Positions 6,552 to 27,925 of a DNA stretch of 64,000 nucleotides are shown piece after piece (positions within the stretch are counted from its first letter, which is position 1; the number at the start of each line of letters is the position of its first letter). Origin of the DNA: an uncultured Gammaproteobacteria bacterium (GTDB lineage: Bacteria > Patescibacteriota > Microgenomatia > UBA1406); the NCBI GenBank assembly GCA_964414145.1, contig CAYPVH010000007.1, positions 28,640 to 92,639 on the forward strand. The letters run 5' to 3'. Position numbers and translations under genes: made by a program. Below the pieces are notes generated by a model. It was not told the DNA's origin and ran no database searches. It was given only the letters and a program-made list of their open reading frames with translations.

Positions 6552-6561
6552 ATTAAATTAC

Positions 6562-6567: not shown

Positions 6568-6573
6568 AAGAAA

Positions 6574-8271
6574 ATGAGGAAAATTATAGTTATTTTTTCC
6601 ACGATTATTCCCATATTTGCTATTGTAGCACTTTTTTCTGATCAATACTTTTCAATGCATGACAGGCAACATATAGTTAGGTTGTTCTTGCTCGACAAGG
6701 GCCTCGGTCAAGGACTTTTATACCCTCGATATGTTGACGGCTTGGGTTTTGGCTTTGGATACCCTTTATTTAATTTTTATCCGCCTCTGATTTATTATAT
6801 TGCCGAAATTTTTAGACTGGTGGGGTTTGGATACGTGGTATCTATCAAGTTAATGTTGATTTTGGGTTTCTATATTTCTTTTACGGGTATGTATTTGCTT
6901 CTAAATAAGTTACTTAAAAAGCCTTATATTGCCTTGCTTGGAGCCACTCTTTTCTTGTTTGCTCCTTACCATGCTGTTTTGGTTTTTGTGAGAGGGGCTT
7001 TTGCCGAGTTTTTTGCCTACAACCTAATTCCCTGGATATTTTGGGCTTTCTTGAAATTAAGCGAAAACAATAAGAGATACTATTTTTCAATATTTATTGC
7101 CCTTTTAATACTGGCGCACCCATTAGTGGCATTCCCTTTTTTATTAATTTTTGGTGTTTTTTTCCTTGTTTATCTTTTGTGTGCGAATAACAAGTTAGAT
7201 CTGATTATTAAAACAGTCTTTGCCTTTTTAGTTGGTTTGGGTTTGTCTGCTTTTTTTTGGTTACCGTCTTTGTTTGAAAGGAAATATACACTGGTTGACA
7301 AAATTCTTACTAATCAATTAGCCAATTATAACCTTCACTTTGTTTACCTTCGGCAATTTTTTAACTCGTCTTGGGGTTTTGGCGGCTCAATATATGGCTT
7401 GTGGGACGGGATGTCTTTTGAAATTGGCAAAATACACTTGGCATTGTCTTTAATTAGTGTTGTTGGTCTTTTTGTTTGTTTACTGAAAGGGGAAAAGTCT
7501 TGTGGTTTAATATTAAAAAAGGCATTGCCATACTTAACGATCTTTGTTGTTGCCGTATTTATGAGTTCGTTTTATTCAAAAATAGTCTGGGACAATGTGC
7601 ATTATTTATGGTATTTGCAATTTCCATGGCGGTTTCTTGTTTTTGCCACATTTGCTTCTTCGCTAAGTGGGGTTTTAATTTTAGTGTTCATAGAAAACAA
7701 TAAAATAAGAGGCGTGTTAGCTGGATTGATAATTGTTTTATCAATAATGTTTTATGCGCCACTTTTTAAACCGGAAAAATTTATTGATGGCGCTGACGAA
7801 AGTTATATAACTAAGGAACAAATTAACTGGGAAGTAAGCAAGACTTCTTATGAATTTATGTACAACGAGGTGAGTACAGTAGTTAACGATGATAATACTA
7901 CAAGTCTTAAGTTACAAAAAAATGAAATTCCAACAATTTCTTATATTAAAAACGAAAACCTTAAGGTAAAACAACTAGAAGATAAATATATTCAAAAAAA
8001 ATATAAAGTTAAGGCGAAAAAGAAAACAAAGTTTGTTATTAACACCAGTTATTTTCCAGGTTGGAATGTGTACGTAAACGGAAATAAACAATTTTTGAGT
8101 AAAACGGGAAAAATAAAACTGCTATCGGTTGAGCTTAAGCCGGGATTATCTGAGGTAGAATTTAGGTTCGAAAACACAACACCAAGAACTGTTGCTAATT
8201 TATTGAGTATTTTTGTGCTGGTTTTATTAATACTTGTTGCCGTGAAGAATTTATTGTTTCACCGAAAATAA
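6574..8271 (+). CDS. GT-C-like large membrane protein (COG5617/YfhO-like)
   Basis: HDRQHIVRL...YPRYVDGLGFGFGYPLFNFYPPLIYY motif block; polytopic, with a C-terminal beta-rich domain and a final TM. Start moved to ATG 6574 (TATAAT 6562-6567); the track start 6490 overlaps wzx. Confidence 0.55.
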   Translation: MRKIIVIFSTIIPIFAIVALFSDQYFSMHDRQHIVRLFLLDKGLGQGLLYPRYVDGLGFGFGYPLFNFYPPLIYYIAEIFRLVGFGYVVSIKLMLILGFYISFTGMYLLLNKLLKKPYIALLGATLFLFAPYHAVLVFVRGAFAEFFAYNLIPWIFWAFLKLSENNKRYYFSIFIALLILAHPLVAFPFLLIFGVFFLVYLLCANNKLDLIIKTVFAFLVGLGLSAFFWLPSLFERKYTLVDKILTNQLANYNLHFVYLRQFFNSSWGFGGSIYGLWDGMSFEIGKIHLALSLISVVGLFVCLLKGEKSCGLILKKALPYLTIFVVAVFMSSFYSKIVWDNVHYLWYLQFPWRFLVFATFASSLSGVLILVFIENNKIRGVLAGLIIVLSIMFYAPLFKPEKFIDGADESYITKEQINWEVSKTSYEFMYNEVSTVVNDDNTTSLKLQKNEIPTISYIKNENLKVKQLEDKYIQKKYKVKAKKKTKFVINTSYFPGWNVYVNGNKQFLSKTGKIKLLSVELKPGLSEVEFRFENTTPRTVANLLSIFVLVLLILVAVKNLLFHRK

Positions 8272-9759
8272 GAATATTTTATTATTACCATAAGGTTTAC
8301 CATAAGCCCTTATTAATTTTAGCGGCCAGTTGGTGGGAAAGCTGGTTCTTTCATGAAAAACTAAATAAACAGGATGGTTTTTTGCTAAATTAACAGCGTA
8401 TTCCAAATCTTCGTCTTTCATAGGCCACCTGGGTTCAAAGTGCAACCTTGGGTCGTCATAGCTGAAATAAATATCAAGAGAGTAGGGCATTAGACCAAAA
8501 GTTCCTTCCGTAAAAACATATATGTCTCCCTCTTTGTTGGCTTTGTTATTCAGGAAGGCTACTATTTCGTTAACTCCCCAGCCAGCAGTGACTCCTTCAA
8601 TGTACTGGCCACGATCGATTTTAGGGAAAGGAATATCTTTGGGTGAAAACAAAATTGTGTAGTTTAAATAAACAACCGACAAGAGGTAAACAGTAAGTAA
8701 TAATATTTTGTATTTAGTGGCTTTTAGAAGATGGATAAAGCCAATAAAGAAGGGAATAGTTAAAAATATTAAATAGCGGGGAAAAATAACCCGGGCGAGG
8801 GCAGAAATTGCCAAGAAAGGTACAATAAAAAAAAGAAACAAATAACTGGCTAGTTCTTTGTTATTTTTAAACATTAATACTAAACCAATTATTCCAAGCA
8901 AAACCAGAATATAGCTGCTCTCGCTTAAAAAGTAAAAAGGTACGGTAATAAGATTATGTAGAAGCGGATTAAAAGGGGAACTAAAATAGTCCATGGGTGA
9001 CATAACAAATGTTGTATTTTTTTGCTCGATGTAGTGCATGAAAGGGGACAGGCGCTGTACATTGTAAATTACAAAAGCAATTAACAAGGCTATAGTAAAA
9101 AGGAATAGATAATTAACAATATTCCTGACTTTATCTTTCTTTTTCAAATAAAATATGAATGGGGCAATTAGGGGTGGTAGTAGAAAGACTCTGATTGTTG
9201 ATTTGGCTAAGGTACCAAGCCCGGCTATAGCACCAAATATTATAGCTATGTCGAGGCGCTTGTTTTTTATTAGTATTAAAGACAATAGAATTATCCAAAT
9301 ATAGAAGCCGTTAACAGTTGCGTCAACAAGTGCCATTCGCTCATAAAAAAGGTAGTAGGGATTAACAATATAAACAAAGGCAGCCAGAAAGGCCAATTTA
9401 GTATTTTTATAGAGGTAATAAACCAAAGAAGATATGCCGGTTAAGGCAAAAAAGCCACTAAAAACGGCAAACATTCTTCCTGCAAAAAGCGGATCCTTAA
9501 AAATCTTTAAAAAAGGGATTGTTCCCCATGTTTGCAAAGGTTGTCGGCCGTCTGTTAAGGAAATAAAGCGCCAGGAAGCATCTCGCCAGGCTTGTTTTGC
9601 CCAGTGAATGTATATTGCTTCATCAGTGAATATTGGTAAATCAGTTAGATTAATCAAACGAGTCGTAAAGAAAATAAAGATAATTAGGGCTATTATCACA
9701 AGGTCGGTTTTTGTTAGCTTTTTCTTTAATTGAGTAAAGATGTTAAATATATCAAACAT
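8251..9759 (-). CDS. GT39/ArnT-like GT-C membrane glycosyltransferase
   Basis: LPIFTDEAIYIHWAKQAW first-loop motif; polytopic; soluble C-terminal domain of about 130 aa. Confidence 0.75.
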   Translation of the reverse strand: MFDIFNIFTQLKKKLTKTDLVIIALIIFIFFTTRLINLTDLPIFTDEAIYIHWAKQAWRDASWRFISLTDGRQPLQTWGTIPFLKIFKDPLFAGRMFAVFSGFFALTGISSLVYYLYKNTKLAFLAAFVYIVNPYYLFYERMALVDATVNGFYIWIILLSLILIKNKRLDIAIIFGAIAGLGTLAKSTIRVFLLPPLIAPFIFYLKKKDKVRNIVNYLFLFTIALLIAFVIYNVQRLSPFMHYIEQKNTTFVMSPMDYFSSPFNPLLHNLITVPFYFLSESSYILVLLGIIGLVLMFKNNKELASYLFLFFIVPFLAISALARVIFPRYLIFLTIPFFIGFIHLLKATKYKILLLTVYLLSVVYLNYTILFSPKDIPFPKIDRGQYIEGVTAGWGVNEIVAFLNNKANKEGDIYVFTEGTFGLMPYSLDIYFSYDDPRLHFEPRWPMKDEDLEYAVNLAKNHPVYLVFHERTSFPTNWPLKLIRAYGKPYGNNKIFLFSVKQ

Positions 9760-9764
9760 ATTTA

Positions 9765-11216
9765 TTACTTTAATAAATAAAGATCCATTGAGTCAAAGGA
9801 TATCATTTTTTTAATGGTTCTGTTAGGTTTTAACTTTTCTTCGGAGCTTAAAGCAACACATTGATATTGGCTTATTTCTGAACCCAGATTAGTTTTTGAA
9901 TAGAAAAACTTAACTGGTTTTTGAAAATAGTAAACCATACTTGGGTGTTCACCCCACCAGTTGGTAGTTGTGATTGTAAGACCCATATCTTTTAGTGTTT
10001 TATAAGTTGTTCTGGCGTTTGGCGATACTAAAACTGCTAAGTTATTACATAAGTTTTTTGCAGACATGGAAAGTTGAATATGAGCGTCGTTATTGGAGTA
10101 AAACGTTTTAAAAAACTGATTTTTTATAACCCCATTATAAAGTATAAATGTTATTACTAATATAAACAGTAAAACTTGAATAGTTCGTTTTTTAAATAGA
10201 ACAAGTGGGTAAAAAGCCAAAAAGATAAATTGGGGAATTACCGGGTATAAGTACCATGATATTTTGGTTTTGGTAAGGTTAAGAAATACAAACCAAGGAA
10301 CAAAAGCAAAAGCTAAAAAAACAGTTTTAGCTTTTATTTGTTTTTTAAAAAATTGCCAGATAATTAAAAGCCCGCCAATAATAGATGGAAAGAGCCAGAT
10401 ACCCAGTTGCTCTACTAATAAGTCCAGGTAAAATGTACGTTGCCCAAAGTGCGATTCGATCGATGCTGACACTCTTCTAAAGTGACTTTCAATTATATGA
10501 GCCTGCCAAAACTCTTTACCAAACAGTACGAGCATCAAGATGTACCATAAGCTAAGAAGCATTATTTGGAATAGAATCACTTTTAATTTTTTTATTAGTT
10601 CTTGCCGATTAATTTGTTTTAGAAAATATAGATAAAAATTAAATAGAAATAACACTCCAAGGGGGTAAAAGCCAAGTAACGACTTACTTTGAATACTTAA
10701 AAAAAGTACAAGTGTAGAAATAATTGGCTTTTTGTAAAACAAAAAAAACCCAAGCCAACCGATTAATAAGAACACGTCTAAGCTTACTACTTGAGAACGT
10801 TGTAAAAAAATGGGGGAAAAAGCTGTAGCGGCTGTTGTAAGAGTTGCAACTAGTTTGTTGTTGCTGACCTTAAAATAAAGAAGGTAAATAAAAGATAGGG
10901 CAATAATAGATGTCGTTAAAGTGAACAGCCTTAAACTTATTTCTGGTGGCACTGTGGGTATCTGTAAAACAATGCCGAATATTAAAATAATTAAAGGTGG
11001 CTTGTCTAGCCATACTTTTCCTTGCCAAAGTGGCGTTAAAAAGTGTTTGCTTTTTATCATTTCAAGCCCGTTTTGAACGTACAATGATTCGTCCCAATCA
11101 AAAAATGGTTGAGCTTCTGTAGTTAGTTTAAAAGCGGAAATAGAAAAAAACAGAAATATAAAGGCAAAAAATAAAGAATGTTTTTTAATAGTTTCTAAAA
11201 TCTTCAACTTAAACAT
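9765..11216 (-). CDS. GT39/ArnT-like GT-C membrane glycosyltransferase
   Basis: FFDWDESLYVQNGLEM and WLDKPPLIILIFG motifs. Start taken at ATG 11216 (MFKLKIL), overlapping the upstream stop by 8 nt (ATGTTTAA); the track start is 11267. Confidence 0.8.
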   Translation of the reverse strand: MFKLKILETIKKHSLFFAFIFLFFSISAFKLTTEAQPFFDWDESLYVQNGLEMIKSKHFLTPLWQGKVWLDKPPLIILIFGIVLQIPTVPPEISLRLFTLTTSIIALSFIYLLYFKVSNNKLVATLTTAATAFSPIFLQRSQVVSLDVFLLIGWLGFFLFYKKPIISTLVLFLSIQSKSLLGFYPLGVLFLFNFYLYFLKQINRQELIKKLKVILFQIMLLSLWYILMLVLFGKEFWQAHIIESHFRRVSASIESHFGQRTFYLDLLVEQLGIWLFPSIIGGLLIIWQFFKKQIKAKTVFLAFAFVPWFVFLNLTKTKISWYLYPVIPQFIFLAFYPLVLFKKRTIQVLLFILVITFILYNGVIKNQFFKTFYSNNDAHIQLSMSAKNLCNNLAVLVSPNARTTYKTLKDMGLTITTTNWWGEHPSMVYYFQKPVKFFYSKTNLGSEISQYQCVALSSEEKLKPNRTIKKMISFDSMDLYLLK

Positions 11217-11961
11217 TCTCGGGATACTTTTTGGTAATTTCGTTGTATTTAATTTTGGCAATATCAAAGAGCGTTTCTATAGAATCTTTAATAAAGTTAA
11301 CATTCTTTGTTTCAACATGACGCCAAGTTACCGGCACTTCTTTAACACAATAATATTTACTAGCTAAATAAAGAAATTCCAAATCGAAGCCGGCGCTAAC
11401 TGAAGAACCACTAATTATTTTTTCATTATTAAACACCTTAAGGTGTTTAATAATGGTTAATGCAGCTTCTTTTTCAAATAGTTTAAAACCGCATTGTGTG
11501 TCATTTATTCCTTTTAAACCAATTAAAAAATTTCGTATATATATAAAACCAACTGCCATCAACTGGCGTACTAAGGGGGCGTCTTGTCTTCTTGAGCTTC
11601 TTGAGCCAATAACAAAGTTATTTCCCTCATTAGAAACACTAATAAGTTTATCGGCTTCTTCAATTGGGGTTGCTAAATCAATATCGGAAAACAGTATGTG
11701 AGTTGTTTTTGATTGTTTAATCCCTTCAATAATGGTATAGGCTTTACCGGAGTGTTCTTTTTCTATTAATTTTAGCTTTGGGTATTTACCAATGTAGTTT
11801 TGACGAATGGTTTGACTACTTTCATCAGTTGAGCCGTCGTCAACAACAAGAACTTCTTTAACAAAACCTTTATTCAGTGCATAATTTAACACTTTATCAA
11901 GGACCCCTTTTTGAAGATTTTTTATTTCATTATAAACCGGCAATATAATTGTTAAAGTCAT
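11209..11961 (-). CDS. GT2 polyprenyl-phosphate hexose synthase (ALG5/DPM1-like, soluble)
   Basis: IILPVYNE, VVDDGSTDES, DIDLATPIEE and DTQCGFKLF motifs. Confidence 0.8.
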   Translation of the reverse strand: MTLTIILPVYNEIKNLQKGVLDKVLNYALNKGFVKEVLVVDDGSTDESSQTIRQNYIGKYPKLKLIEKEHSGKAYTIIEGIKQSKTTHILFSDIDLATPIEEADKLISVSNEGNNFVIGSRSSRRQDAPLVRQLMAVGFIYIRNFLIGLKGINDTQCGFKLFEKEAALTIIKHLKVFNNEKIISGSSVSAGFDLEFLYLASKYYCVKEVPVTWRHVETKNVNFIKDSIETLFDIAKIKYNEITKKYPENV

Positions 11962-13433
11962 GTTTTTTTGTGAACAACTTTGTAAACTCTGATACCTTCA
12001 ATTACCCAAGATTTTTCCACTTTTTTATTACTAAAGGCTGCTATTTGCCATTGTCCATTATTTAATATTTCACACTTATTTTCAAAACACAAAACAAAAA
12101 GTTCATCAGGGTTATCTATTGTATCCTCGGGTAAAGGGGTTTTACCCATAATTTCTATAAAATATCTGTATGGAGCATCGCTTTCGGTGTATGGTAAAGC
12201 TACCATTTGAAAAGAATCTTTCTTAACTTCACTAAATATACTGCTGGCTATTTTTCTGGCTCTAGGTACGGGGTTACTTCCCTTAACTAATATGTACTTT
12301 AAAGATCCTAAATTTGTATAACTTAAGAAGAGTAGCAGTAATAGTATAAAGTATTTACAGATTTTACAACTTTTCCATCTCGTTGCCAGTATGAATGCGA
12401 TAGAAATGAAAAAACTTAGGTAGATGGGTGTAAAGTAATGAATATGTCTATTGCTGGGCAAAATCGAAAAAACAAGTATGTAAATAATGCTACAAGAAGC
12501 AAAAATTGCCGCTAATAAACTTTTGCTTCGATAAGCCAACATTATGGCGGCAAAAGTTATTAAGACAATTAGTAATAAAGCTATGCTTCCGCTCACATTA
12601 ACGTTAAGAGAAAGTTTAACAAAAGCTGTTGCAGTTTCAAAAAGTCGGTTAAAGTAGGGTATTACTGGTTCATTAGTAGAGTTAAAAATTTTAAGAAAAC
12701 TTTTACTGTTAATAAAATCGTGTCTTAGGTCAAAAATAATCAACGGAGAATAAAATACAAAGAAAGAAATAACTGAAATTATGTTTTTTTTAAAAAGAGT
12801 AAGTGGCGACTTAGTTTTAAAGTATTCAGCTATAGTGAATAAAGCAAAAACTACAACTAATGCTGAAACCAAGTAATGAAGTTGCATTGATAAGGAAAAA
12901 AACATCCCGAAAAGAAACGGAAAAAAATATCCTTTACTTTTTAATGATTTATAGAAGAAATAGAGAGTGAAGAATGAAAAATATGGTAATAAGTTTGGAT
13001 TCCAAGAGTATCTCGATAGATCAGTTAAAGCAGCCGATATTGTTAAAAGAAAGGTAGATATTGTGGCAACAGCCTTATTAGTTTCCACTCTTAGAATAAA
13101 ATAAATCAAAATTATAGAAACAACAGAAATAATAGCAACACCATAACCCAAACCAATAGGATTAAAATTGAATAGGAAAAGGAAAGGTGACATTAGATAA
13201 TAATAGAAAGGCCCTAGGAAAACGCCCCCAACAGACATTGATGGTCCAATCAATGGCAGGCGTTCTAACTTAACGATTCTTTTTATTATTATAGCGTCTC
13301 TACCCTGGTCACCAAGGAAAGTTATATGCTCGCTTAACGCATAGAAACGAAGAAAAATGATTACAAATAAAAATAGAACCAATGGTTTGTTATCTAAGAC
13401 TAACTTTTTTACTTTTGCTAAAATGTTTCTCAT
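11958..13433 (-). CDS. GT-C fold membrane glycosyltransferase (ArnT/PMT-like, DQGRD subtype)
   Basis: FLGDQGRDAIIIKRI first-loop motif; polytopic; soluble C-terminal domain. The 4-nt overlap (11958-11961) suggests coupling to the downstream GT2. Confidence 0.7.
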   Translation of the reverse strand: MRNILAKVKKLVLDNKPLVLFLFVIIFLRFYALSEHITFLGDQGRDAIIIKRIVKLERLPLIGPSMSVGGVFLGPFYYYLMSPFLFLFNFNPIGLGYGVAIISVVSIILIYFILRVETNKAVATISTFLLTISAALTDLSRYSWNPNLLPYFSFFTLYFFYKSLKSKGYFFPFLFGMFFSLSMQLHYLVSALVVVFALFTIAEYFKTKSPLTLFKKNIISVISFFVFYSPLIIFDLRHDFINSKSFLKIFNSTNEPVIPYFNRLFETATAFVKLSLNVNVSGSIALLLIVLITFAAIMLAYRSKSLLAAIFASCSIIYILVFSILPSNRHIHYFTPIYLSFFISIAFILATRWKSCKICKYFILLLLLFLSYTNLGSLKYILVKGSNPVPRARKIASSIFSEVKKDSFQMVALPYTESDAPYRYFIEIMGKTPLPEDTIDNPDELFVLCFENKCEILNNGQWQIAAFSNKKVEKSWVIEGIRVYKVVHKKT

Positions 13434-14568
13434 GTGGAATAGGTTAAAACCATATTTTATTATAACTTCTTTAATTTTGCTAAGTACATTTATTTTATGG
13501 CTTCCCTTCCTGTCAAAGTGGGATAGTATTGGTCATCTTGTGTTTAACAATCCCCTGAGTATGTTTGATATTTACAAGCATTGGGACGGAGCGCTTTACG
13601 TTATAGTTGCTAAAACTTTTTATAATCCAAATAACTCGGTTTTGGCAAGTGCGCCACTTGGGTTACCGGTTAACTATTTTGTTGCCCACTTCCCGCTTTA
13701 CCCGCTGTTGATAAAAATAGGTGCATTTTTCGTTGGTTATTTAAAAAGTATGTTAGCCTGGCCTGTGCTGTTTGCCGTTTTATATGGCTCCTTCTTTTAC
13801 TACTTTGTTAAAGAGTTAAAAATTACCAAAAAACCTTTACTTCTTGTTTTGGTGGCACTTTTTTTTACCCCTCGTTTCTTTGTGATCCGGTCGGTACCGG
13901 CTCCGGAAACCATTTTTATGTTTTTAACTTTGGCCTCCGTATTCTTTTTCATTAAAAAGAAATATTTACTAGCTGGTTTAGTCGGCGCTTTTGCCGTTTT
14001 TACCAGAAGCCCGGGAATGCTTCTATTTACAGGTTATGGCTTATATTTTTTAACGAAAGTTTTAAAAACAAAAAAAATAAAACTAGAGTGGTTTGGTATC
14101 TTATTAATACCAATAGCACTATTGTTGGTATTTTTACTCTTTTACCTGCAAACCGGTAACTTTTTTGCTTATTTTTATTCCGGCGATAATATACATCTGC
14201 TATTTCCTCCTTTTCAAGTATTCAATCATCAGGCAACGTGGGTTGGGACGGGTTGGCTTGAAGACATTATGTTTATTTATATGTTCTACTTTTTAGCACT
14301 TCTAAATTTGTGGCAAAAAAAAGAATTAAAACCGGTCTTTTATTTCGTGCTTATTTATTTTCTTGCCATAATTTCTGTGGAGCACAAAGATATTGCTCGC
14401 TATAGTTTACCCATACTCCCCTTTGCTTTGATGGCTTTTGAAAGATTTTTTACGTCTCGAAAACTACTAATAACAGTATTGGTGGTTTTACCGGCGCTTT
14501 ATTTTTATGCCTGGAATTTTATGCTTCACAATGTTGCTCCAATTACAGAGTGGGGTTTGTTTATGTAA
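13432..14568 (+). CDS. GT-C-like membrane glycosyltransferase (PIG-V/GT76-like)
   Basis: YKHWDGALYVIVAKTFY motif; all-TM. Start taken at ATG 13432 (TAAAAT 13419-13424, then 7 nt); the track start is 13357. Confidence 0.5.
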   Translation: MWNRLKPYFIITSLILLSTFILWLPFLSKWDSIGHLVFNNPLSMFDIYKHWDGALYVIVAKTFYNPNNSVLASAPLGLPVNYFVAHFPLYPLLIKIGAFFVGYLKSMLAWPVLFAVLYGSFFYYFVKELKITKKPLLLVLVALFFTPRFFVIRSVPAPETIFMFLTLASVFFFIKKKYLLAGLVGAFAVFTRSPGMLLFTGYGLYFLTKVLKTKKIKLEWFGILLIPIALLLVFLLFYLQTGNFFAYFYSGDNIHLLFPPFQVFNHQATWVGTGWLEDIMFIYMFYFLALLNLWQKKELKPVFYFVLIYFLAIISVEHKDIARYSLPILPFALMAFERFFTSRKLLITVLVVLPALYFYAWNFMLHNVAPITEWGLFM

Positions 14569-14583: not shown

Positions 14584-15717
14584 CTATTTTTTCCAAACCA
14601 CCTTATTGTACATTATGTATGAGTAGGGAATAACTAAGAAGGCAATCAAGAAAACTTTATAAACAATCCAAGAAGGTAGGCTAATGTTTCTAATTGAAAA
14701 TGAAGTATCGCCAAAAATGCTTAATGCTACAAACATACCTACTCCTTGAATTAATAGTGCGCCTGAGGAAACAAGGTTGAATAATATAAATTTTTTAATA
14801 TAAACTTGGGTGTTGCCTTTAATTTGTTTATGTTTAAAAGCCCAAAAATTGTTTAAAAAGAAATTATTTATAATAGCCAGCTCGGCGCTAACAGTATTTG
14901 CCAGTGGTTTGGAAACATTAATATATGTGATCAATAGAAAAGCCATTAGAAAGTCAATAAAAAATCCGGAAAAACCAACAATCAAGTATTTTACAAAAGC
15001 TGAATTACCAATAATGTATGAAAATATATTGAGAATAAAATCAATGAAATTAATTTTTGAAACCCCCTTTTTCCTTTCTTTAAATTTGAGGGGCACCTGT
15101 TCAATTTTGGCATTCATTTTAATTGCCTTGTCAAGAAGAGCAATCTGGAAGACATAGCCGCTGTACTTATTAATTTCAGGCAAAATATTCTTAATAGTTT
15201 TTGCTTTAATTGCGCGAAACCCTGAAGTCCAGTCATTAATTTTAAAGTTCATAAAACCAAGTTGAACAATAATGTTTCCGAATCCGGAAAATATTTTTCT
15301 ATGAATTCCCCAGTCTTTTGGTATGGCGCCACCTTTAATGTATCGCGCCCCAATAACAAAATCTGCTCCCTTGTCTATTCTGGCTAGCATTTTTGGAATT
15401 AAACTTGGGGGGTGAGATAAATCCGCATCCATTTCAAAAACAATATCTGCTTTTAGATTGGTAATAGCATAGCTAAAACCCCTTGTATAAGCTTTGCCTA
15501 AGCCTTCTTTTTTTCCTGTAATTAGATGGATATTTTTGTTTTGTCTTTGTAGTTTTTTTACAATAAATGCAGTTTGATCGAGTGAGTTGTCGTCAACTAC
15601 CAGTATATTAATTAGCCAATTGCTTAATTTTTCTTGTTGTTTAAATATCTCTTGAATAACTTCCTTTATATTTCCGGCCTCGTTATAGGTTGGGAGCACA
15701 ATTGTTGCCGTTTTCAT
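14584..15717 (-). CDS. Polyprenyl-phosphate sugar synthase (DPM1-like GT2) fused to a C-terminal GtrA-like 4-TM domain
   Basis: TIVLPTYNEAGNI, VVDDNSLDQT and DADLSHPP in the catalytic half; C-terminal FVKYLIVGFSGFFIDF...FWAFKH is a GtrA-like membrane domain. Confidence 0.85.
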   Translation of the reverse strand: MKTATIVLPTYNEAGNIKEVIQEIFKQQEKLSNWLINILVVDDNSLDQTAFIVKKLQRQNKNIHLITGKKEGLGKAYTRGFSYAITNLKADIVFEMDADLSHPPSLIPKMLARIDKGADFVIGARYIKGGAIPKDWGIHRKIFSGFGNIIVQLGFMNFKINDWTSGFRAIKAKTIKNILPEINKYSGYVFQIALLDKAIKMNAKIEQVPLKFKERKKGVSKINFIDFILNIFSYIIGNSAFVKYLIVGFSGFFIDFLMAFLLITYINVSKPLANTVSAELAIINNFFLNNFWAFKHKQIKGNTQVYIKKFILFNLVSSGALLIQGVGMFVALSIFGDTSFSIRNISLPSWIVYKVFLIAFLVIPYSYIMYNKVVWKK

Positions 15718-16667
15718 TTTGATAGTAAATTTTTAAAGTAAAATATTGTAGCTTTTAATCCTTCCTCAAGGTTTACTTTTGGTTGCCAATCTAATAGTCT
15801 TTGAGCTTTCTCAATATTCGGCTTTCTTTTTTGTGGATCGTCTTTTGGTAAAGGTTTGTAGCAGATGGTTGCTTTTGATGTGGTTAAACTAAGAATAATT
15901 GTGGCAATTTCTTTTATTGAATATTCTTCCGGGTTGCCCAGATTAATTACTTCCCCTTTTACATTTTTTGTCCCAAGTTTATATAAACCATTAACCAGGT
16001 CAGTAACATAACAAAAAGAACGTGTTTGGCTACCGGTTCCGTTAATCGAAAGCGGCTGATTCATAAGAGCTTGAACAATAAAATTAGAAATTACTCTGCC
16101 GTCATTTTTTTCCATATTTGGGCCATAGGTATTAAAAATTCTGGCTACTCGAATATTAAGATTGTATTTTTTCAAGTAGGTAAAACAAAGTGCTTCACCA
16201 AATCTTTTTGCCTCGTCGTAACATGACCTGGGCCCGAATGAGTTTACATTTCCCCAGTAAGTTTCGATTTGTGGATGGATTAATGGATCACCATAAATTT
16301 CAGAAGTAGAAGCAAACACAAATCCTGCTTTATCCCTCTTAACGATATGTTCTAAAACATTTTCTACTCCTACAGAATTTGCTTTAAGTGTTTCAAGAGG
16401 GTATTTTTCGTACTGAACAGGTGAGGCGGGTGAGGCTAGGTGATAAACAAGGTCGAATTTTATGTTTTGTAACTGCTTTACAAAGTTGGTATTGCTTACA
16501 TCTGCTTTTATAAAGTTAAACTTGGGGTTTTTATTGAATTTACTAATATTGGCAATCGAGCTTGTTAGCAAATTGTCGATTACTACAACATTTTGGTCTC
16601 CAGATAGAAACTTTTCTGTTAAATGAGATCCGATAAATCCAGCACCGCCTGTTATTAAAATATTCAT
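15714..16667 (-). CDS. uxs: UDP-glucuronate decarboxylase (UDP-xylose synthase)
   Basis: GGAGFIGSH, STSEIYGDPLIHPQIETYWGNVN, CYDEAKRFGEAL and RIFNTYGPNM..DGRVISNF are a near-canonical UXS signature. Confidence 0.9.
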   Translation of the reverse strand: MNILITGGAGFIGSHLTEKFLSGDQNVVVIDNLLTSSIANISKFNKNPKFNFIKADVSNTNFVKQLQNIKFDLVYHLASPASPVQYEKYPLETLKANSVGVENVLEHIVKRDKAGFVFASTSEIYGDPLIHPQIETYWGNVNSFGPRSCYDEAKRFGEALCFTYLKKYNLNIRVARIFNTYGPNMEKNDGRVISNFIVQALMNQPLSINGTGSQTRSFCYVTDLVNGLYKLGTKNVKGEVINLGNPEEYSIKEIATIILSLTTSKATICYKPLPKDDPQKRKPNIEKAQRLLDWQPKVNLEEGLKATIFYFKNLLSK

Positions 16668-16672
16668 TTATG

Positions 16673-17968
16673 TTATGTATTTTTTCGACCTACAGAATAA
16701 TAGTGAAAGCCGATTTGTTTCATTTTTTTAACGTCGTACATGTTTCTGCCGTCAAATATAAAGGGGCTTCTGAGTATTTTTTTTACCTTTAATAAGTCTG
16801 CTTGTTTAAATTCATTCCATTCCGTTAGAATAACTAGGGCATCATTGTTTTTAACGGTACTATAAGGATCTGTGCCATACTTAATTTTATTCTTAAAAAT
16901 AGCTTTAATATTGTTCATGGCTTCTTGGTCATAGACGGTAATATTAAAGCCATTTACAAGTAGTTCCTTAATAACATAAATTGACGGAGCTTCTCGAATA
17001 TCATCTGTATTTGGTTTAAAACTTAAACCCCAAATTGCCAGTCTTTTTCCGGGTGCTTCTTTTATTATTGTGTCAACTAAATTTTGTCGGGACTGGGTAT
17101 TGATTGCTTCTACCGCTTTTAAGAATTGACTGTTGACTCCATAGTTTTCGCCTATTTTTATTAAAGCTTTAATGTCTTTGGGTAAACAAGAACCACCATA
17201 ACCTACTCCCGGGTATAGAAAGACTCTACCAATTCGTTTGTCCAGTCCAACGGCATTTAATACTACTTCAACGTCTGCTCCCGTTTTTTGGCAATAAAAA
17301 GAAATCAAGTTGGCAAAAGAAATTTTTGTTGCCAACATGGCGTTTGAAGTATATTTGATTAATTCCGCCGAAGTCAGATCGGTAATAACACGTTCACCAC
17401 TTAAGGGACTGTGAAGAGTTTTTAGTACCGCTATTGCTTCTTTTGAATTAGATCCAATTACTACCCTATCTGGACTGTAAGTGTCCAAAAGAGCTGTTCC
17501 CTCGCGAAGAAATTCGGGGCATGAGGCAACTTCCACAGTAGATTGTTTTGGTTTTACTTGATTAATAATATTTTTAACTTTCTGATTTGTGCCTACCGGA
17601 ACCGTACTTTTACACGAAACCACCGTGAATCCGCTTTTTAGGTTTTTGCCAATCGATTCTGCAACCTTGAGAACATTGGTTAAGTCTGCTTCTCCGTTGT
17701 GTTTGGGTGGTGTACCAACGGCAATAAAAACAATGTCTGATTTTGAAACCGATTCCTTGTAATCGAGTGTAAAAATAATCCTCCCGGCATTTAGGTTTTT
17801 GTGAAGTAGCTCTTTCAATCCGGGCTCATATATTAATGGATCGCCCTTTCGGAGTTTGTTAATTTTTTCTTCATTTCTGCCAACCAAATAAACCGTATTT
17901 CCAAAATCGGCAAAAACACAAGCAGTGACCAAACCAACGTAGCCGTGTCCAACAAAGGTAATAATCAT
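16673..17968 (-). CDS. ugd: UDP-glucose 6-dehydrogenase
   Basis: N-terminal GHGYVGLV Rossmann motif, GGSCLPKD catalytic Cys motif and a length of 431 aa. Confidence 0.9.
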   Translation of the reverse strand: MIITFVGHGYVGLVTACVFADFGNTVYLVGRNEEKINKLRKGDPLIYEPGLKELLHKNLNAGRIIFTLDYKESVSKSDIVFIAVGTPPKHNGEADLTNVLKVAESIGKNLKSGFTVVSCKSTVPVGTNQKVKNIINQVKPKQSTVEVASCPEFLREGTALLDTYSPDRVVIGSNSKEAIAVLKTLHSPLSGERVITDLTSAELIKYTSNAMLATKISFANLISFYCQKTGADVEVVLNAVGLDKRIGRVFLYPGVGYGGSCLPKDIKALIKIGENYGVNSQFLKAVEAINTQSRQNLVDTIIKEAPGKRLAIWGLSFKPNTDDIREAPSIYVIKELLVNGFNITVYDQEAMNNIKAIFKNKIKYGTDPYSTVKNNDALVILTEWNEFKQADLLKVKKILRSPFIFDGRNMYDVKKMKQIGFHYYSVGRKNT

Positions 17969-17996
17969 AGATTTAAATGATATACTAAACTAATCA

Positions 17997-18839
17997 CTAA
18001 TTCAATTTAATGCGCTTTGATATTTCCAGTAACCCTTCTTTAAATGTTTTCATTTTATAAAAATTGTTTTTACTACTTTTAATTTCCATATACTGAGGCC
18101 TTTTAGCTTTATTTCTGAAGTAATTAGCATAAGTTGTTGGAATAATTTTATTCCGGCTAAAGCCAAAAACATCGGCGATTATTAAGCCGACTTCAAAGGG
18201 TGAATGACTAGTTGAACCAACAATATGGTAAATTTCATTTGAGTAGTTTTTGATTAAGAAGCTTAAAGCGTTGGCAATATCATCAATAAAAGTTGGAGTC
18301 ATGGTTGAGTCTTCTACCATTTCAATCGTTTTTTGGTCTTTTAATAAACTTAGAATTACCCGAACAAAATCTTTCTTTTTTTCAAATTCAGATCGGTAGG
18401 GGTAAGAAATTCGAACAATCATGCCTTCTTTGCCAACTATTTTTTCGGCGTCAAATTTACTTTTTGCATAGGTTGAAATTGGATTAGGTTTAGAATTTTC
18501 ATAATAAGGTGGGTTGGTACCATCAAAAACGAAATCGGTAGAAATGAAAATAAACTTAATATTTTTGGATTTTGCCACATTAAAAAGGTTTTTTGTTCCC
18601 AGAACATTAACTTGATGAGTAATACTGGCATTAAATTCCGCCTGATCAACGGCTGTATAAGAGGCAAAATGCAGTAATATATCTGGCTTTATGTTTGAGA
18701 AATACCTGGAAACTGAATCTACTTGAGTAATATCGCAATCCTTATGTAAAATTGGAAAAATTTGGAATGTATTATTTAATAATGATACTACTCTTGATCC
18801 GACCAATCCATTTGCTCCGGTCACTGCAACTTTAACCAT
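17997..18839 (-). CDS. rfbD: dTDP-4-dehydrorhamnose reductase-like (RmlD family)
   Basis: VTGANGLVGSR, STDFVFDG and YAKSK (YxxxK) motifs; 280 aa. Confidence 0.8.
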   Translation of the reverse strand: MVKVAVTGANGLVGSRVVSLLNNTFQIFPILHKDCDITQVDSVSRYFSNIKPDILLHFASYTAVDQAEFNASITHQVNVLGTKNLFNVAKSKNIKFIFISTDFVFDGTNPPYYENSKPNPISTYAKSKFDAEKIVGKEGMIVRISYPYRSEFEKKKDFVRVILSLLKDQKTIEMVEDSTMTPTFIDDIANALSFLIKNYSNEIYHIVGSTSHSPFEVGLIIADVFGFSRNKIIPTTYANYFRNKAKRPQYMEIKSSKNNFYKMKTFKEGLLEISKRIKLN

Positions 18840-18845
18840 GATAAT

Positions 18846-19859
18846 TTATGTACTATATTGCTTTTTATAGTAATCTTGATATTCTTTTGATTTAATTTTT
18901 TTCCACCAATTTTGGTTTTGTTGGTACCACTGAATGGTTTTGAAAAGAGCCGATTGAAAGGAGTGTTCTGGTTTCCAGCCAAGTTCTTGATTGATTGTAC
19001 TCCAGTCAATGGCATATCTTCGGTCGTGACCGGGCCTGTCTTTAACATAGTTTATACTGCTTTCATTTTTTTTCATCAATCTTAAAATTGTTTTAATGAT
19101 AGTAATATTATTAATGTCTTCGGTTTGGCCACCGACTAAATATGTTTTTCCAACCTGCCCCTTTTTTAATATTAAATCTATCGCTCGGCAATGATCTTCT
19201 ACATACAACCAATCTCTTACATACAAACCGTCTCCATAAATTGGCACCGGCTTATTTTCCAGTAAATTAGTTATTGCCAAGGGGATTAACTTTTCTGGAA
19301 ACTGGAATGGGCCAAAGTTATTGGAGCAATTGGAAATAGTTACAGGTAGGTTGAATGTTTCAAAATATGCTCTAACCAGGTGGTCAGATGAAGCCTTTGA
19401 AGCTGAATAAGGGCTTCTGGGGTTATAAGCAGTTTGGTCATTAAATTTTTCCGATGAATCTAAAGGAAGTGCGCCAAAGACTTCGTCGGTAGAAATGTGG
19501 TGAAATCGTTTAATGGCAAATTTTCTGGCAGCTTCAAGTAGTGCATAAGTACCTTCAATATTGGTTTTAATAAAGGGGCTCGGGTCTAAAATTGATCGGT
19601 CCACATGGGTTTCGGCTGCAAAGTGAACAATTGTATCTACTTGTTTAACTACCCTTTTAACCGCCTCTTGGTTACATATATCATCTTTGATAAAGGTATA
19701 ATTCTTATGATTTTCAACCCGGCTTAAATTTTCCAGATTGCCGGCATAGGTGAGATTATCGAAATTGATTATGCGGTCTTGTGGGTATTTTTTTAGCCAA
19801 TACAAAATAAAATTACTACCAATAAAGCCGGCGCCACCGGTTACTAAAAGTGTGTTCAT
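18846..19859 (-). CDS. rfbB: dTDP-glucose 4,6-dehydratase
   Basis: VTGGAGFIGSNF, NLTYAGNLENL, HFAAETHVDRS and YSASKASSDH motifs. Confidence 0.92.
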   Translation of the reverse strand: MNTLLVTGGAGFIGSNFILYWLKKYPQDRIINFDNLTYAGNLENLSRVENHKNYTFIKDDICNQEAVKRVVKQVDTIVHFAAETHVDRSILDPSPFIKTNIEGTYALLEAARKFAIKRFHHISTDEVFGALPLDSSEKFNDQTAYNPRSPYSASKASSDHLVRAYFETFNLPVTISNCSNNFGPFQFPEKLIPLAITNLLENKPVPIYGDGLYVRDWLYVEDHCRAIDLILKKGQVGKTYLVGGQTEDINNITIIKTILRLMKKNESSINYVKDRPGHDRRYAIDWSTINQELGWKPEHSFQSALFKTIQWYQQNQNWWKKIKSKEYQDYYKKQYST

Positions 19860-19860
19860 A

Positions 19861-20616
19861 TTAAAATTTCAAATATTTTAAGAACTGATTTAAATTTTTA
19901 GATTCCTTTTTGGCCCAATATAGGTTGGCTGTTACCAATGTGTCAAAGGTGCCAGCGTCTAGCCAGTAGCCATCAAGTTCAGACCAGCTTAACTTTCCAG
20001 AATTAATATAAAAGTTATTAATATCGGTGATTTCCATCTCACCTCGCTCTGACGGTTTTGATTGTTCAATATAGTTGAATACTTTATTGTCATAAATATA
20101 CAAACCGGTAACAGCAAAGTCTGATGGCGGGGTTTTGGGTTTTTCTATTATTTCTAAAATTTTATTGTTGTCATTGTTAAACCGTGGAACTCCGAATCTT
20201 TCCGGATCGGGGACTTTTTTTAAAAAAACCATTGCTCCGTCTTTGAACTTGTTAACGGCTTGGGAAATGTCGGCGTCTGTTGTGTTATCACCAAGAATTA
20301 CGGTGATTGAACCATTATCGGCAAAGTCTTTGGCTAGGCTAACGGCGTCGGCAATACCCCCTTTTGGGTTTTCTTGATAAGCATATTCAAGATGAGTTAT
20401 TCCAAGCTCTTTACCATTTTTTAAAACATTAATAAAATGACCGCTATGCGGGCCCGAAGTAATTACTAATATTTCGGTAATCCCGGCGTTTACTAGTGTA
20501 GCAATTGGATAGTAGATCATTGGTTTACCATAGATAGGCAATAAATGCTTATTAGTTGCATGTGTTAATGGGTATAGCCTGGTAGCGAGTCCTCCGGCAC
20601 AAATTACACCTTTCAT
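19861..20616 (-). CDS. rfbA: Glucose-1-phosphate thymidylyltransferase-like sugar nucleotidyltransferase (short form)
   Basis: MKGVICAGGLATRLYPLT..NKHLLPIYGKPMIYYP is an RmlA-type N-terminus; 251 aa. Confidence 0.8.
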   Translation of the reverse strand: MKGVICAGGLATRLYPLTHATNKHLLPIYGKPMIYYPIATLVNAGITEILVITSGPHSGHFINVLKNGKELGITHLEYAYQENPKGGIADAVSLAKDFADNGSITVILGDNTTDADISQAVNKFKDGAMVFLKKVPDPERFGVPRFNNDNNKILEIIEKPKTPPSDFAVTGLYIYDNKVFNYIEQSKPSERGEMEITDINNFYINSGKLSWSELDGYWLDAGTFDTLVTANLYWAKKESKNLNQFLKYLKF

Positions 20617-20621
20617 AAATG

Positions 20622-20873
20622 TTAAAGAAAAACTTTTAATGTTAGTAAACCAAATGAGGCAATCAAAATGTATTCTATGATTATCAGATAAGAAATCTTA
20701 CCAATCCTTACCTGATGCAAAATTCCCCAAAGCAGATAATAAAGCACAAACAACAATAATACTTTTTGTCTGGTTTCTTTTGTTTGGATTAAAATAAAAA
20801 GCATGCCACAAAAAAAGGAATATAGTGTTAATAATAAGTATTCGACCTTATGATTTAATAACTCGTTTCTCAT
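20622..20873 (-). CDS. Small membrane protein (3 TM), unknown function
   Basis: ORF with hydrophobic helices, tightly packed between the CAP gene and rmlA. Confidence 0.4.
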   Translation of the reverse strand: MRNELLNHKVEYLLLTLYSFFCGMLFILIQTKETRQKVLLLFVLYYLLWGILHQVRIGKISYLIIIEYILIASFGLLTLKVFL

Positions 20874-21844
20874 AATATTACTCCCGGATTTGTGGCAATT
20901 ATACTTAATATTAAAAGCAGTGTAAACATAAGTTGGGCAATGTGCTTACCCGATAGCTTAAAAACTTTATTTTTTTTAGTAATATAAAAGTCCAGAGCCA
21001 AAACGATTGATAATCCAAGCAAAGCCGAAACCACTATGTATTTTTGTAATCCGGAAATATCAATTAGAGCAGTTTTTTTGATAATATCTGACCCGGCTTT
21101 ATAAAATGATGATGGTGGCGGTTGATTCTTTGAAATTGTTTTAACTATTTGAACACTGGGGGTGGGTGTAAGTGTTGGTGTTGTTTGTTCTGTTACTTCC
21201 GTTTGAATATCTTCTGGAGTAGTAGTATTTAAGGGAGTGGTTGAGGCAAGGGTTGTTGCCTCTTGTGTACCAAATAATTGAACTATTAAAATTGTATTTT
21301 CACCCTGTAGGGTTCCTTCCATCACAGCAAATCCAATTTCTTGGTATTCGGGTTTTAGAATATTTTCTCTGTGTGTGGGAGAGTTCATCCAAGCCTGTAC
21401 AACATCTTTTGTACTAGTGAAATCTTTTGCCAAATTTTCGCCGGCATAAATATAGGGGTAGTTATTTTTTTGAAAAAAGAACCAGGGCGAAGTACCGTCG
21501 GGGGCAAAGTGTGACCAATAATCATTGGCAAAAATATGAGCTGCTTTGTCGGCGGCTGCGTTAACTAGGTTCGGGTTTAATTGAAGTGGTTCCAAACCGT
21601 GCTGTGCTCTTTCAGCGTTTGTATAATTTAACAGTACTTCGACAGAAATATCAATGTTTTCACCAAGTATGTTGGTTGGGTAATTGGTAACCGCAAAGCG
21701 TAAACCGATATTCAGTACCAGTAAAACCAAAATAAGTGAAGTTAAAAAGTCATGTTGAATATATTTAGCACGCCATTGATTATTTTCGTGAGGAATAAAT
21801 AAGTATCTAAAAACTGCCTTTATTTTGTTTATAAGCTTTTTCAT
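20870..21844 (-). CDS. CAP/SCP (PR-1-like, YkwD-type) domain protein, membrane-anchored at both ends, with a Thr/Pro-rich linker
   Basis: NAERAQHGL..L..N..L..AA..KA, YWSHF and WMNSPTHRENIL are the CAP signature. TTPLNTTTPEDIQTEVTEQTTPTLTPTPS linker. Confidence 0.8.
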   Translation of the reverse strand: MKKLINKIKAVFRYLFIPHENNQWRAKYIQHDFLTSLILVLLVLNIGLRFAVTNYPTNILGENIDISVEVLLNYTNAERAQHGLEPLQLNPNLVNAAADKAAHIFANDYWSHFAPDGTSPWFFFQKNNYPYIYAGENLAKDFTSTKDVVQAWMNSPTHRENILKPEYQEIGFAVMEGTLQGENTILIVQLFGTQEATTLASTTPLNTTTPEDIQTEVTEQTTPTLTPTPSVQIVKTISKNQPPPSSFYKAGSDIIKKTALIDISGLQKYIVVSALLGLSIVLALDFYITKKNKVFKLSGKHIAQLMFTLLLILSIIATNPGVIL

Positions 21845-21892
21845 AGAAAATTAATTTTGGCAATGCGTCTTAATTGGATTATAGCAATAAGT

Positions 21893-24765: not shown

Positions 24766-24771
24766 ATGCCT

Positions 24772-24777
24772 ATTGTA
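24772..24777 (-). promoter_or_regulatory. -10-like hexamer TACAAT, 6 nt upstream of ATG 24765 (inside the 3' end of ftsX)
   Basis: The minus strand reads TACAAT-aggcat-ATG. Confidence 0.35.
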
Positions 24778-24820
24778 TACTACTTGCCCGTTTCTTTTCA
24801 AAGTGTGCTGGAGGGTAAAC

Positions 24821-25717: not shown

Positions 25718-25727
25718 TTTTTATATT

Positions 25728-26411: not shown

Positions 26412-26413
26412 AT

Positions 26414-26860: not shown

Positions 26861-26906
26861 TTGCTTTTTTTAATTAACTACATAATTAGTAATTCATTAT
26901 ATTTGC

Positions 26907-27920: not shown

Positions 27921-27925
27921 GTTTT

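Follow-up and report, generated by a model that had tools for sequence, protein, structure and literature searches.

Which sugar does the membrane-anchored glycosyltransferase at the end of a bacterial nucleotide-sugar operon load onto its lipid carrier, and does the UDP-xylose synthase encoded immediately upstream supply it? The question is raised by a stretch of 64,000 nucleotides (hereafter the window; contig CAYPVH010000007.1 of assembly GCA_964414145.1, positions 28,640 to 92,639), which belongs to a Roizmanbacteria-like (Patescibacteria) genome. At positions 14584-20616 six open reading frames (ORFs), all on the minus strand and with exactly the coordinates given in the initial annotation, follow one another in the 5′ to 3′ order rmlA, rmlB, rmlD, ugd, uxs and a gene for a family 2 glycosyltransferase (GT2). 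They are as tightly packed as had been described, with gaps read from the sequence of 1 nt (rmlA/rmlB), 6 nt (rmlB/rmlD), 28 nt (rmlD/ugd) and 5 nt (ugd/uxs), while the uxs stop and the GT2 start share a 4-nt overlap, ATGA. We conclude that the last gene very probably encodes a polyprenyl-phosphate glycosyltransferase feeding GT-C enzymes. That it is specifically a polyprenyl-phosphate-mannose synthase resembling Ppm1 and dolichyl-phosphate-mannose synthase (DPMS), sitting where a variable nucleotide-sugar cassette meets GT-C genes, has in our judgement an even chance of being correct.

The GT2 gene (14584..15717, minus strand) encodes a type-III DPMS-like polyprenyl-phosphate glycosyltransferase, in which a GT2 domain (PF00535, E 1e-27) is joined to a four-helix GtrA/DPMS membrane domain (PF04138, GtrA_DPMS_TM, E 4e-16 over residues 243-375). 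Among solved structures the best sequence match is DPMS of Pyrococcus furiosus (PfDPMS, PDB code 5mlz, E 4e-36), followed by ArnC (2.5e-14) and GtrB (3e-7). The NCBIfam models for ArnC and PpgS return 59 and 38 bits against cutoffs of 529 and 370, respectively. An AlphaFold2 model (pLDDT 88.7) shows, besides a GT-A domain and interface helices, four membrane helices at the C terminus (residues 240-264, 270-293, 303-335 and 349-374), and a Foldseek search with this model places 5mlz at the top (E 2e-24) over the full length, with 389 columns that include the membrane domain. The combination of GT2 and GtrA domains, described as a fusion in the initial annotation, is the ordinary architecture of type-III DPMS and not a new one; PfDPMS matches it from end to end and the Pfam domain is now named GtrA/DPMS TM.

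Residues that contact ligands in the PfDPMS complexes were taken from the published structures (PMC5526996) and mapped by alignment, without a ligand-bound model. The acceptor-phosphate site of PfDPMS (Arg117, Arg131 and Ser135) corresponds to Arg125, Arg140 and Ser144 here and is invariant in 201 homologs, which agrees with the earlier assignment of the last gene as a polyprenyl-phosphate glycosyltransferase. Equally invariant in this set are Asp97-Ala-Asp99 (the DAD motif), Glu13, and Arg215 and Lys221 of the A-loop. In PfDPMS numbering the window enzyme retains the GDP contacts Tyr10, Asp39, Gly68, Leu69 and Ala90, the metal and diphosphate network of Glu12, Asp91, Arg202 and Lys208, and the mannose contacts Asp89, His94 and Arg117. 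The only two mapped positions to be altered are Gln93, replaced by Ser, and Lys178, replaced by Val. The UDP-dependent ArnC type, together with two paralogs elsewhere in the window, carries G-Q/H and DxDLQ[ND] and has no RYxKGG..W insert; the DPMS-type GT2 carries G-L and DADLSH. The parallel with the Arn pathway on which the initial annotation relied does not extend to this enzyme, which has no ArnC/GtrB motifs, and the paralogs at 3100-4032 and 29908-30849 would be closer ArnC analogues. No fusion of Uxs to GT2 of the Rosetta-stone kind was seen among 150 family representatives, and the long proteins among them (GT2-GT2, GtrA-GT2 and C-terminally extended forms) contain no short-chain dehydrogenase/reductase (SDR). 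Taken together, the conserved catalytic and acceptor residues and the predicted fold mark the last gene product as a type-III DPMS/Ppm1-like enzyme, which would move a sugar from a nucleotide sugar to polyprenyl monophosphate.

The scheme we favour is as follows. GT2 would transfer the sugar to polyprenyl monophosphate at the cytoplasmic face, the four-helix GtrA/DPMS domain anchoring it in the membrane and perhaps helping to flip the product, and PMT-, MptA/B- and ArnT-like GT-C enzymes would draw on the lipid-linked sugar outside the membrane. GDP-mannose would most likely be the donor, making the enzyme a polyprenyl-phosphate-mannose synthase, and Uxs would adjoin GT2 not as the supplier of its substrate but because a variable cassette, in which uxs comes last, has been inserted upstream of a GT2 that stays constant.

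The neighbourhood of the gene in other genomes bears directly on this scheme. Homologs of GT2 number in the thousands; the 120 best show at least 51% identity, share the same architecture and derive from Roizmanbacteria, from the Patescibacteria group or from records labelled plainly as 'bacterium'. The set of close relatives comprised 80 genome loci in which GT2 is 48-62% identical to that of the window, and upstream genes were counted only where there was enough upstream DNA (for Uxs, 78 loci with more than 1 kb). In 76 of these 78 loci GT2 has a Uxs homolog upstream on the same strand. No other ORF intervenes in 73; the two genes overlap by 4 nt in 49 and are no more than 10 nt apart in 67. 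The other cassette genes are similarly frequent, with Ugd at 66 of 69 loci, the RmlD-like protein at 60 of 64 and RmlB at 56 of 57. Overall Uxs is linked in 84 loci and Gmd in five relatives, a mixed context as regards the donor. The sugar cassette and GT2 stay together while the flanks change completely; in most loci the genes downstream of GT2 encode a PEGA/SH3 protein, ArgRS and argininosuccinate synthase. The adjacency of uxs and GT2, on which the initial annotation had staked its proposal, is therefore conserved in relatives, and it is this conservation, not the spacing, that exceeds chance. Within Roizmanbacteria the adjacency of rmlD and ugd is about as well conserved without any substrate link between the two, so that synteny in this group partly reflects shared ancestry.

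Many third-party records of metagenome-assembled genomes named 'uncultured Gammaproteobacteria bacterium' (L007, L008, L012, L015, L019-L021 and others) hold this Patescibacteria-type operon, with GT2s 48-55% identical to that of the window. The Gammaproteobacteria titles on those records are probably wrong.

More distant relatives were sought among 50%-identity representatives. Here the Roizmanbacteria proteins form one cluster and the next full-length relatives are 35-45% identical; the neighbours of 22 of these were typed by BLAST and by PDB comparison. The gene directly upstream of GT2 codes for Uxs in eight (L084, L085, L088, L089 and L101-L104), Gmd in five (L081, L092, L096, L099 and L112; Gmd was recognized by its match to PDB code 2z1m, E 1e-124), an Rmd-like reductase in two (L095 and L098) and a GalE-like epimerase in one (L093). 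A pair of genes for a CAP-domain and a small protein occupies the position in three (L091, L105 and L106) and an unrelated gene in another three (L083, L087 and L100). Directly after GT2 come GT-C genes in L081, L085, L095, L098, L099, L104 and L112. Near approximately 60 DPMS-like loci of other lineages, which encode the catalytic domain only, no Uxs was found.

Two forms of the operon, ugd-Rmd-Gmd-uxs-GT2 and ugd-Rmd-Gmd-GT2, differ by Uxs alone. They interleave when GT2 sequences are clustered by identity, since at 57% identity the nearest GT2 to that of L101, which has Uxs, is P0139, which has none, and the mapped PfDPMS contact residues are identical between the Uxs-bearing and Uxs-less enzymes of the interleaved operons. 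Uxs is absent yet GT2 is kept in the otherwise identical operons L081, L092, L096, L099 and L112 and in 11 further loci (L030, L051, L072, L083, L087, L091, L093, L095, L100, L105 and L106). That Uxs comes and goes without change in GT2 points to a constant, Uxs-independent function, most simply with GDP-mannose as donor. Since GDP-mannose is the substrate of Gmd, the linkage of Gmd in five relatives indicates that this nucleotide sugar is present in those organisms. The picture that emerges from the comparison of loci would be a nucleotide-sugar cassette that can be swapped inside a constant frame (CAP protein, small protein, GT2 and GT-C/GT2 genes), the cassette containing genes for dTDP-L-rhamnose or GDP-D-rhamnose, Ugd and, in some cases, Uxs, GalE or a UDP-glucuronate 4-epimerase.

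In favour of mannose, then, PfDPMS is the best match in both sequence and fold and the contact residues are of the DPMS type. A weaker, family-level indication comes from the neighbouring GT-C enzymes, which fall into the PMT/PMT_2 and MptA_B/GT87-like families, whose characterized members use polyprenyl-phosphate-mannose. Several observations weigh on the other side. In neither the 64-kb window nor the 10 kb to either side of GT2 in the 80 Roizmanbacteria loci (of up to 21 kb) was manA, manB, manC or Gmd seen. The uxs-GT2 pair, with its frequent 4-nt overlap, is more persistent than any other, and it survives replacement of the rml genes by Gmd/Rmd (L084, L085, L089, L101, L103 and L104). The Ppm1-like enzyme PpgS uses UDP-GalNAc (PMC3485146), and motifs of the DPMS type are hence no proof of a GDP-mannose donor. 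The contact residues, moreover, were mapped by alignment alone, and at the position of the guanine-binding Asp39 of PfDPMS 151 of 201 close homologs have Ser, though the window enzyme has Asp.

The residues equivalent to Asp39 and Gln93 were considered as a possible signal of specificity and discarded. The Asp, Gln state groups with the Uxs-less loci L030, L051 and L072 but is found also in the Uxs-linked sister loci L004, L033, L040 and L043, and thus reflects phylogeny rather than the partner gene.

The explanation put forward in the initial annotation is that GT2 takes UDP-xylose from the translationally coupled Uxs to give polyprenyl-phosphate-xylose, which is flipped and used by GT-C xylosyltransferases in an amine-free, Arn-like pathway. 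Uxs itself is secure. The gene (15714..16667, minus strand) encodes a UDP-glucuronate decarboxylase/UDP-xylose synthase that is 51% identical to human UXS1 (PDB codes 4gll and 2b69, E 1e-99), with the next family at E 4e-43 and ArnA at E 4e-33. The signature noted earlier as near-canonical is complete, since the catalytic Thr/Ser-Ser-Glu, Tyr-x3-Lys, Asn176 and Arg277 (human UXS1 numbering) are all present; all 75 upstream homologs keep them too, save for a Thr/Ser exchange at the first position. A bimodal distribution of identities (46-51% versus 53-61%) had raised the suspicion that two SDR types occur upstream of GT2, which was dismissed when all proved to be 45-55% identical to human UXS1 with catalytic residues intact. 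That the upstream SDRs are all true Uxs enzymes is a point for UDP-xylose, as are the conservation of the pair in Roizmanbacteria described above, its retention in eight of the 22 distant homologs despite a different remaining cassette and the lack of Uxs near any of the approximately 60 DPMS-like loci from other lineages. To these may be added Ser at the Asp39 position in 75% of Roizmanbacteria orthologs, the precedent of PpgS for Ppm1-like enzymes able to use UDP sugars, and the failure to see GDP-mannose genes nearby.

Against UDP-xylose stand the operons that keep GT2 without Uxs, and the interleaving of Uxs-bearing and Uxs-less enzymes with all mapped contact residues common to both. These residues are of the GDP-mannose type, and PfDPMS shows merely residual activity with UDP-glucose (PMC5526996). 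The similar conservation of rmlD-ugd discounts part of the synteny, and UDP-xylose could just as plausibly be used by the two ArnC/GtrB-type GT2s of the window. Adjacency favours xylose, and the wider sampling, in which Uxs is gained or lost with no alteration of the GT2 contact residues, weakens that inference. We regard UDP-xylose as an unlikely donor for the window enzyme, and find it doubtful that GT2s of the DPMS type, coupled in translation to Uxs, make polyprenyl-phosphate-xylopyranose from UDP-xylose in Roizmanbacteria and their relatives among the Patescibacteria, for PMT/ArnT-like GT-C enzymes to xylosylate envelope glycans or proteins on the outer side of the membrane.

Might the lipid carry yet another sugar? 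Candidates are polyprenyl-phosphate-linked glucuronic acid, glucose or a 6-deoxyhexose, or a clade-variable donor that follows the neighbouring SDR (Uxs, Gmd/Rmd or GalE). Ugd is indeed the most constant member of the cassette, being present in 66 of 69 Roizmanbacteria loci and in most of the distant operons (L089, L091, L092, L095, L099, L101-L105 and L112), yet it is absent from L083, L093, L100 and L106. Archaeal AglJ and dolichyl-phosphate-hexose transferases score comparably in NCBIfam. The gene upstream of GT2 almost always specifies an SDR that modifies nucleotide sugars, its type varying by clade, but a switch among GDP-6-deoxyhexose, UDP-pentose and UDP-hexose without change in the contact residues is unlikely. 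As to UDP-glucuronic acid, we know of no characterized DPMS-like enzyme that uses it, and RgtE, the dodecaprenyl-phosphate-galacturonic acid synthase, is ArnC-like. A donor of this kind seems to us improbable.

That the linkage carries no functional information, GT2 merely following sugar genes in the long co-directional runs of a small genome, is in our view highly implausible, since cassette and GT2 stay together while their flanks change and since nucleotide-sugar genes and GT-C/GT2 genes flank GT2 across many 50%-identity clusters, even though tight spacing is common in the window, the run to which GT2 belongs takes in genes as different as ftsEX, prfB and a peptidase gene, and scans for promoters and terminators gave background levels. 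The figures behind these last points are as follows. Same-strand gaps across the window have a median of 7 nt and are at most 28 nt in 25 of 40 cases, and five more pairs of unrelated genes overlap by 4 nt; close packing is usual in this genome, so that spacing alone does not set the six genes apart. Promoter and terminator scans intended to bound the operon gave counts equal to the shuffled expectation and are uninformative. The co-directional run continues upstream of rmlA to about position 30849, and the best reading of the six genes is as the 3′ portion of an extended envelope-glycan operon.

The entire minus-strand run, 14584-30849, covers some 16 kb with very small gaps. It includes genes for a GtrB-like GT2, a cytidylyltransferase, a LytR_C protein, prfB, ftsE/ftsX, an M23 peptidase, a lamin-tail-domain protein, VanZ and a CAP protein besides the sugar operon. 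It may represent a super-operon of cell-division and envelope genes.

We return to the preferred scheme, GT2 as a DPMS-type, possibly mannose-loading enzyme behind a variable cassette, and describe that cassette. Searches with Pfam, NCBIfam and PDB bear out the gene identities first proposed, with the qualification that the RmlA-like and RmlD-like proteins fall below TIGR cutoffs. The first gene (19861..20616, minus strand) encodes an RmlA-like, short-form glucose-1-phosphate thymidylyltransferase (PF00483, E 9e-55; top PDB match 3hl3, E 3e-69) scoring 237 bits on TIGR01207, under the cutoff of 361; it lies outside the conserved block, with a homolog in six of 55 related loci that have enough upstream DNA. 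RmlB, dTDP-glucose 4,6-dehydratase (18846..19859, minus strand), reaches 483 bits on TIGR01181 (cutoff 365). The RmlD-like 4-reductase (17997..18839, minus strand; PF04321, E 4e-58; PDB code 3sc6, E 6e-35) attains 187 bits on TIGR01214, under the cutoff of 224. Ugd, UDP-glucose 6-dehydrogenase (16673..17968, minus strand), has three UDPG_MGDP_dh domains and 427 bits on TIGR03026 (cutoff 190). By homology the RmlA-like, RmlB and RmlD-like proteins are predicted to yield a dTDP-6-deoxyhexose, and Ugd and Uxs to yield UDP-glucuronic acid and then UDP-xylose, a sequence of steps on which the initial annotation is supported.

RmlC (PF00908) was not detected among the scanned ORFs of the window, and the RmlABCD set for dTDP-L-rhamnose is thus incomplete within it. 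The rmlB-rmlD pair likewise occurs without RmlC in nearly all Roizmanbacteria loci, RmlC being present only in L059 (5318-5761), L083 (1637-2215) and L095. Either rmlC is located elsewhere in the genome or the product is a dTDP-6-deoxy-D-hexose instead of L-rhamnose.

Variation within the cassette can be substantial. In L089 (4041-6048), L092 (5770-7937), L099, L101, L103, L104 and L112, genes for Gmd and Rmd (PDB code 2pk3, E 2e-86) occupy the position of the rml genes, as if cassettes for the supply of L-rhamnose and D-rhamnose (dTDP-L-rhamnose and GDP-D-rhamnose) had been exchanged. In L091 (3896-6248) the cassette lies downstream of GT2, which is followed by another GT2, Ugd and a UDP-glucuronate 4-epimerase (PDB code 6zl6, E 3e-56); this cassette would supply UDP-galacturonic acid in place of UDP-xylose.

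Directly upstream of rmlA is a gene for an 83-residue membrane protein (20622..20873, minus strand); L091, L092 and L093 encode homologs (E 1e-5 to 1e-9). The protein, 83-91 residues long across these loci and the window, shares the motif WGI[LF]HH..EY and has no Pfam match. It overlaps by 4 nt a gene for a secreted protein with a CAP/YkwD domain (20870..21844, minus strand; PF00188, E 2e-21), which recurs at the same position in L001, L002, L053, L059, L091-L093, L105 and L106. The pair precedes the cassette or GT2 in the window (20622-21844), L091 (856-1957), L092 (502-2014) and L093 (5731-6976), the GT2s of the last three being only 36-40% identical to that of the window. By analogy with GacJ, the partner of GacI, or Rv3632, the partner of PpgS, the small membrane protein might be a partner of GT2.

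At the operon's opposite side lies an array (8251..13433, minus strand) of three PMT/PMT_2-type GT-C genes (11958-13433, 9765-11267 and 8251-9759) and a GT2 gene (11209-11961), recognized by the Pfam models PMT_2/PMT and Glycos_transf_2. The link to GT-C enzymes drawn in the initial annotation holds in that GT-C genes recurrently follow GT2; an array that abuts the operon, as was stressed there, is a feature only of the window and five close relatives, the same gene order being found only in L001, L002, L047, L053 and L059. Between operon and array, and convergent with the operon, is a gene for a conserved membrane-associated protein (13357..14568, plus strand) that weakly matches the NCBIfam glycopolymer family AZOBR_p60025 and is 56-67% identical in L001, L002, L053 and L059. 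It overlaps the annotated start of the GT-C gene 11958-13433 (minus strand) by 77 nt, and one of the two start codons has probably been called too early.

A candidate GT-C enzyme of the MptA/B- or GT87-like type, 360 residues in length, is encoded at 4041..5123 (plus strand). It has no Pfam or NCBIfam match and, like the product of 13357-14568, gave none with Pfam at E values up to 1, but shows 32-34% identity (E 1e-25 to 1e-32) with proteins of L081 and L093 that are annotated as PF26314 MptA_B_family; the L081 homolog has a weak GT87 match. Homologs recur near GT2 in L004, L040, L051 and L072. An ArnT/PMT-like GT-C enzyme is encoded at 808..2259 (plus strand; PMT_2, E 3e-22; ArnT model 60 bits, cutoff 567). 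Large membrane proteins of the PTPS_related and DUF2298 families, at 6490-8271 (plus strand) and 58306-60447 (minus strand), may be further GT-C-like enzymes, and PTPS_related genes come after GT-C genes in L093 too.

The two paralogs mentioned above are polyprenyl-phosphate glycosyltransferases of the GtrB/ArnC/PgfS, UDP-sugar type. The first (3100..4032, plus strand), with RNFGH and DGDLQDPP motifs, matches the PgfS and ArnC models over the full length with 273 and 175 bits, both under the equivalog cutoffs. The second (29908..30849, minus strand), with RNFGH and DADLQDPP motifs, gives 280 bits for PgfS and 183 bits for ArnC, again over the full length and under the cutoff of the ArnC model. 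The 64 kb hold three candidate lipid-sugar synthases in all, the DPMS-type enzyme and these two, together with at least five GT-C-like genes.

What would each reading mean? If the enzyme uses UDP-xylose, the novelty would be a gene-assigned synthase that makes lipid-phosphate-xylopyranose from UDP-xylose, the first gene for a lipid-phosphate-xylose synthase. It would define a pentose route distinct from the furanose routes based on phosphoribosyl pyrophosphate (PRPP) and add another lipid-linked donor to bacterial glycobiology. If the more ordinary reading is true, Patescibacteria use the actinobacterial and archaeal strategy of a DPMS-type lipid-sugar synthase that feeds many GT-C enzymes, with the synthase at a fixed junction between a swappable cassette (for L- or D-rhamnose, glucuronic acid, xylose or galactose) and GT-C genes. 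Such a junction would provide a useful map for predicting surface glycans in Patescibacteria, whose envelopes are almost uncharacterized.

Comparison with known systems places the locus more precisely. It is not, on the evidence of its encoded proteins, an Arn pathway. The two have in common Ugd and an SDR that decarboxylates UDP-glucuronic acid, a GT2 that would load polyprenyl phosphate and GT-C transfer outside the membrane. They differ in that the SDR is a true Uxs, far closer to UXS1 than to ArnA, the coupled GT2 is of the DPMS type with ArnC-type genes elsewhere in the window, and the best ArnT-like GT-C enzyme scores only about a tenth of the model cutoff. As the initial annotation had stated, aminotransferase (ArnB), formyltransferase and deformylase (ArnD) domains are lacking from all scanned ORFs of the window.

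Lipid-linked neutral pentoses that feed GT-C enzymes, supposed in the initial annotation to be undescribed in bacteria, are already known, for instance in the three-component pentofuranose systems in which undecaprenyl-phosphate-ribofuranose or -xylofuranose is used by a GT-C enzyme of family GT136 (Kelly et al. 2024, PMC11127046); a route from UDP-xylose would nevertheless be new. These systems, like mycobacterial decaprenyl-phosphate-arabinose and decaprenyl-phosphate-methylthioxylose, resemble the proposed pathway in presenting pentoses linked to a lipid monophosphate to GT-C enzymes outside the membrane. They differ in that the furanoses are built on the lipid from PRPP (or methylthioadenosine), with an epimerase whose substrate is the lipid-linked sugar, and none is made from UDP-xylose by a DPMS-like GT2. 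No UbiA-type (phosphoribosyl)transferase was matched among the scanned ORFs of the window, GT136 not being specifically modelled, and the sole PRT domain in them belongs to a soluble type-I phosphoribosyltransferase (39808-40365).

The reaction proposed for xylose has an entry of its own, EC 2.4.2.32, dolichyl-phosphate D-xylosyltransferase, which forms a lipid-phosphate-xylose from UDP-xylose and polyprenyl or dolichyl phosphate. To our knowledge it is described only as an activity of animal membranes, with no gene assigned. Searches of a literature library for undecaprenyl-phosphate-xylose, dolichyl-phosphate-xylose or polyprenyl phosphate xylose, and for Patescibacteria with UDP-xylose, found nothing; a search on Roizmanbacteria sugars gave unrelated work, and a paper on the ArnC structure gave no rule for base specificity.

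The polyprenyl-phosphate-GalNAc synthase PpgS of M. tuberculosis with its partner Rv3632 (PMC3485146) offers another parallel, combining a Ppm1-like GT2 with a small integral membrane partner and passing the product to a GT-C enzyme. There the two parts are split, not fused, the donor is UDP-GalNAc, and the PpgS model, as noted, falls well short of its cutoff on the window enzyme. The same logic is seen in actinobacterial Ppm1 with Pmt and MptA/MptB (PMC3485146), where in a similarly monoderm-like envelope a DPM1-like GT2 provides a polyprenyl-phosphate-sugar to PMT/MptA/B-type GT-C enzymes outside. Ppm1, in contrast, works with an Lnt-like membrane partner, separate or fused, and not with a GtrA/DPMS domain, and at the window locus mannose-pathway genes are not linked and the assignment of GT-C families is weak.

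The closest counterpart is type-III DPMS of P. furiosus (PDB codes 5mlz, 5mm0 and 5mm1; PMC5526996). The two enzymes share the GT-A GT2 domain, the interface helices and the four-helix GtrA_DPMS_TM domain, as well as the DAD motif, the acceptor-phosphate triad, the A-loop Arg and Lys and, as aligned, most of the GDP and mannose contacts. A 2026 paper (PMC12992685) proposes that the DPMS membrane domain may flip the product. Sequence identity is approximately 32%, with the exchanges at Gln93 and Lys178 already described. The window enzyme is bacterial, its acceptor presumably a bacterial polyprenyl phosphate, and its gene lies inside a nucleotide-sugar operon with Uxs. The locus is best filed under lipid-sugar synthases of the DPMS type, here within an envelope-glycan operon of Patescibacteria.

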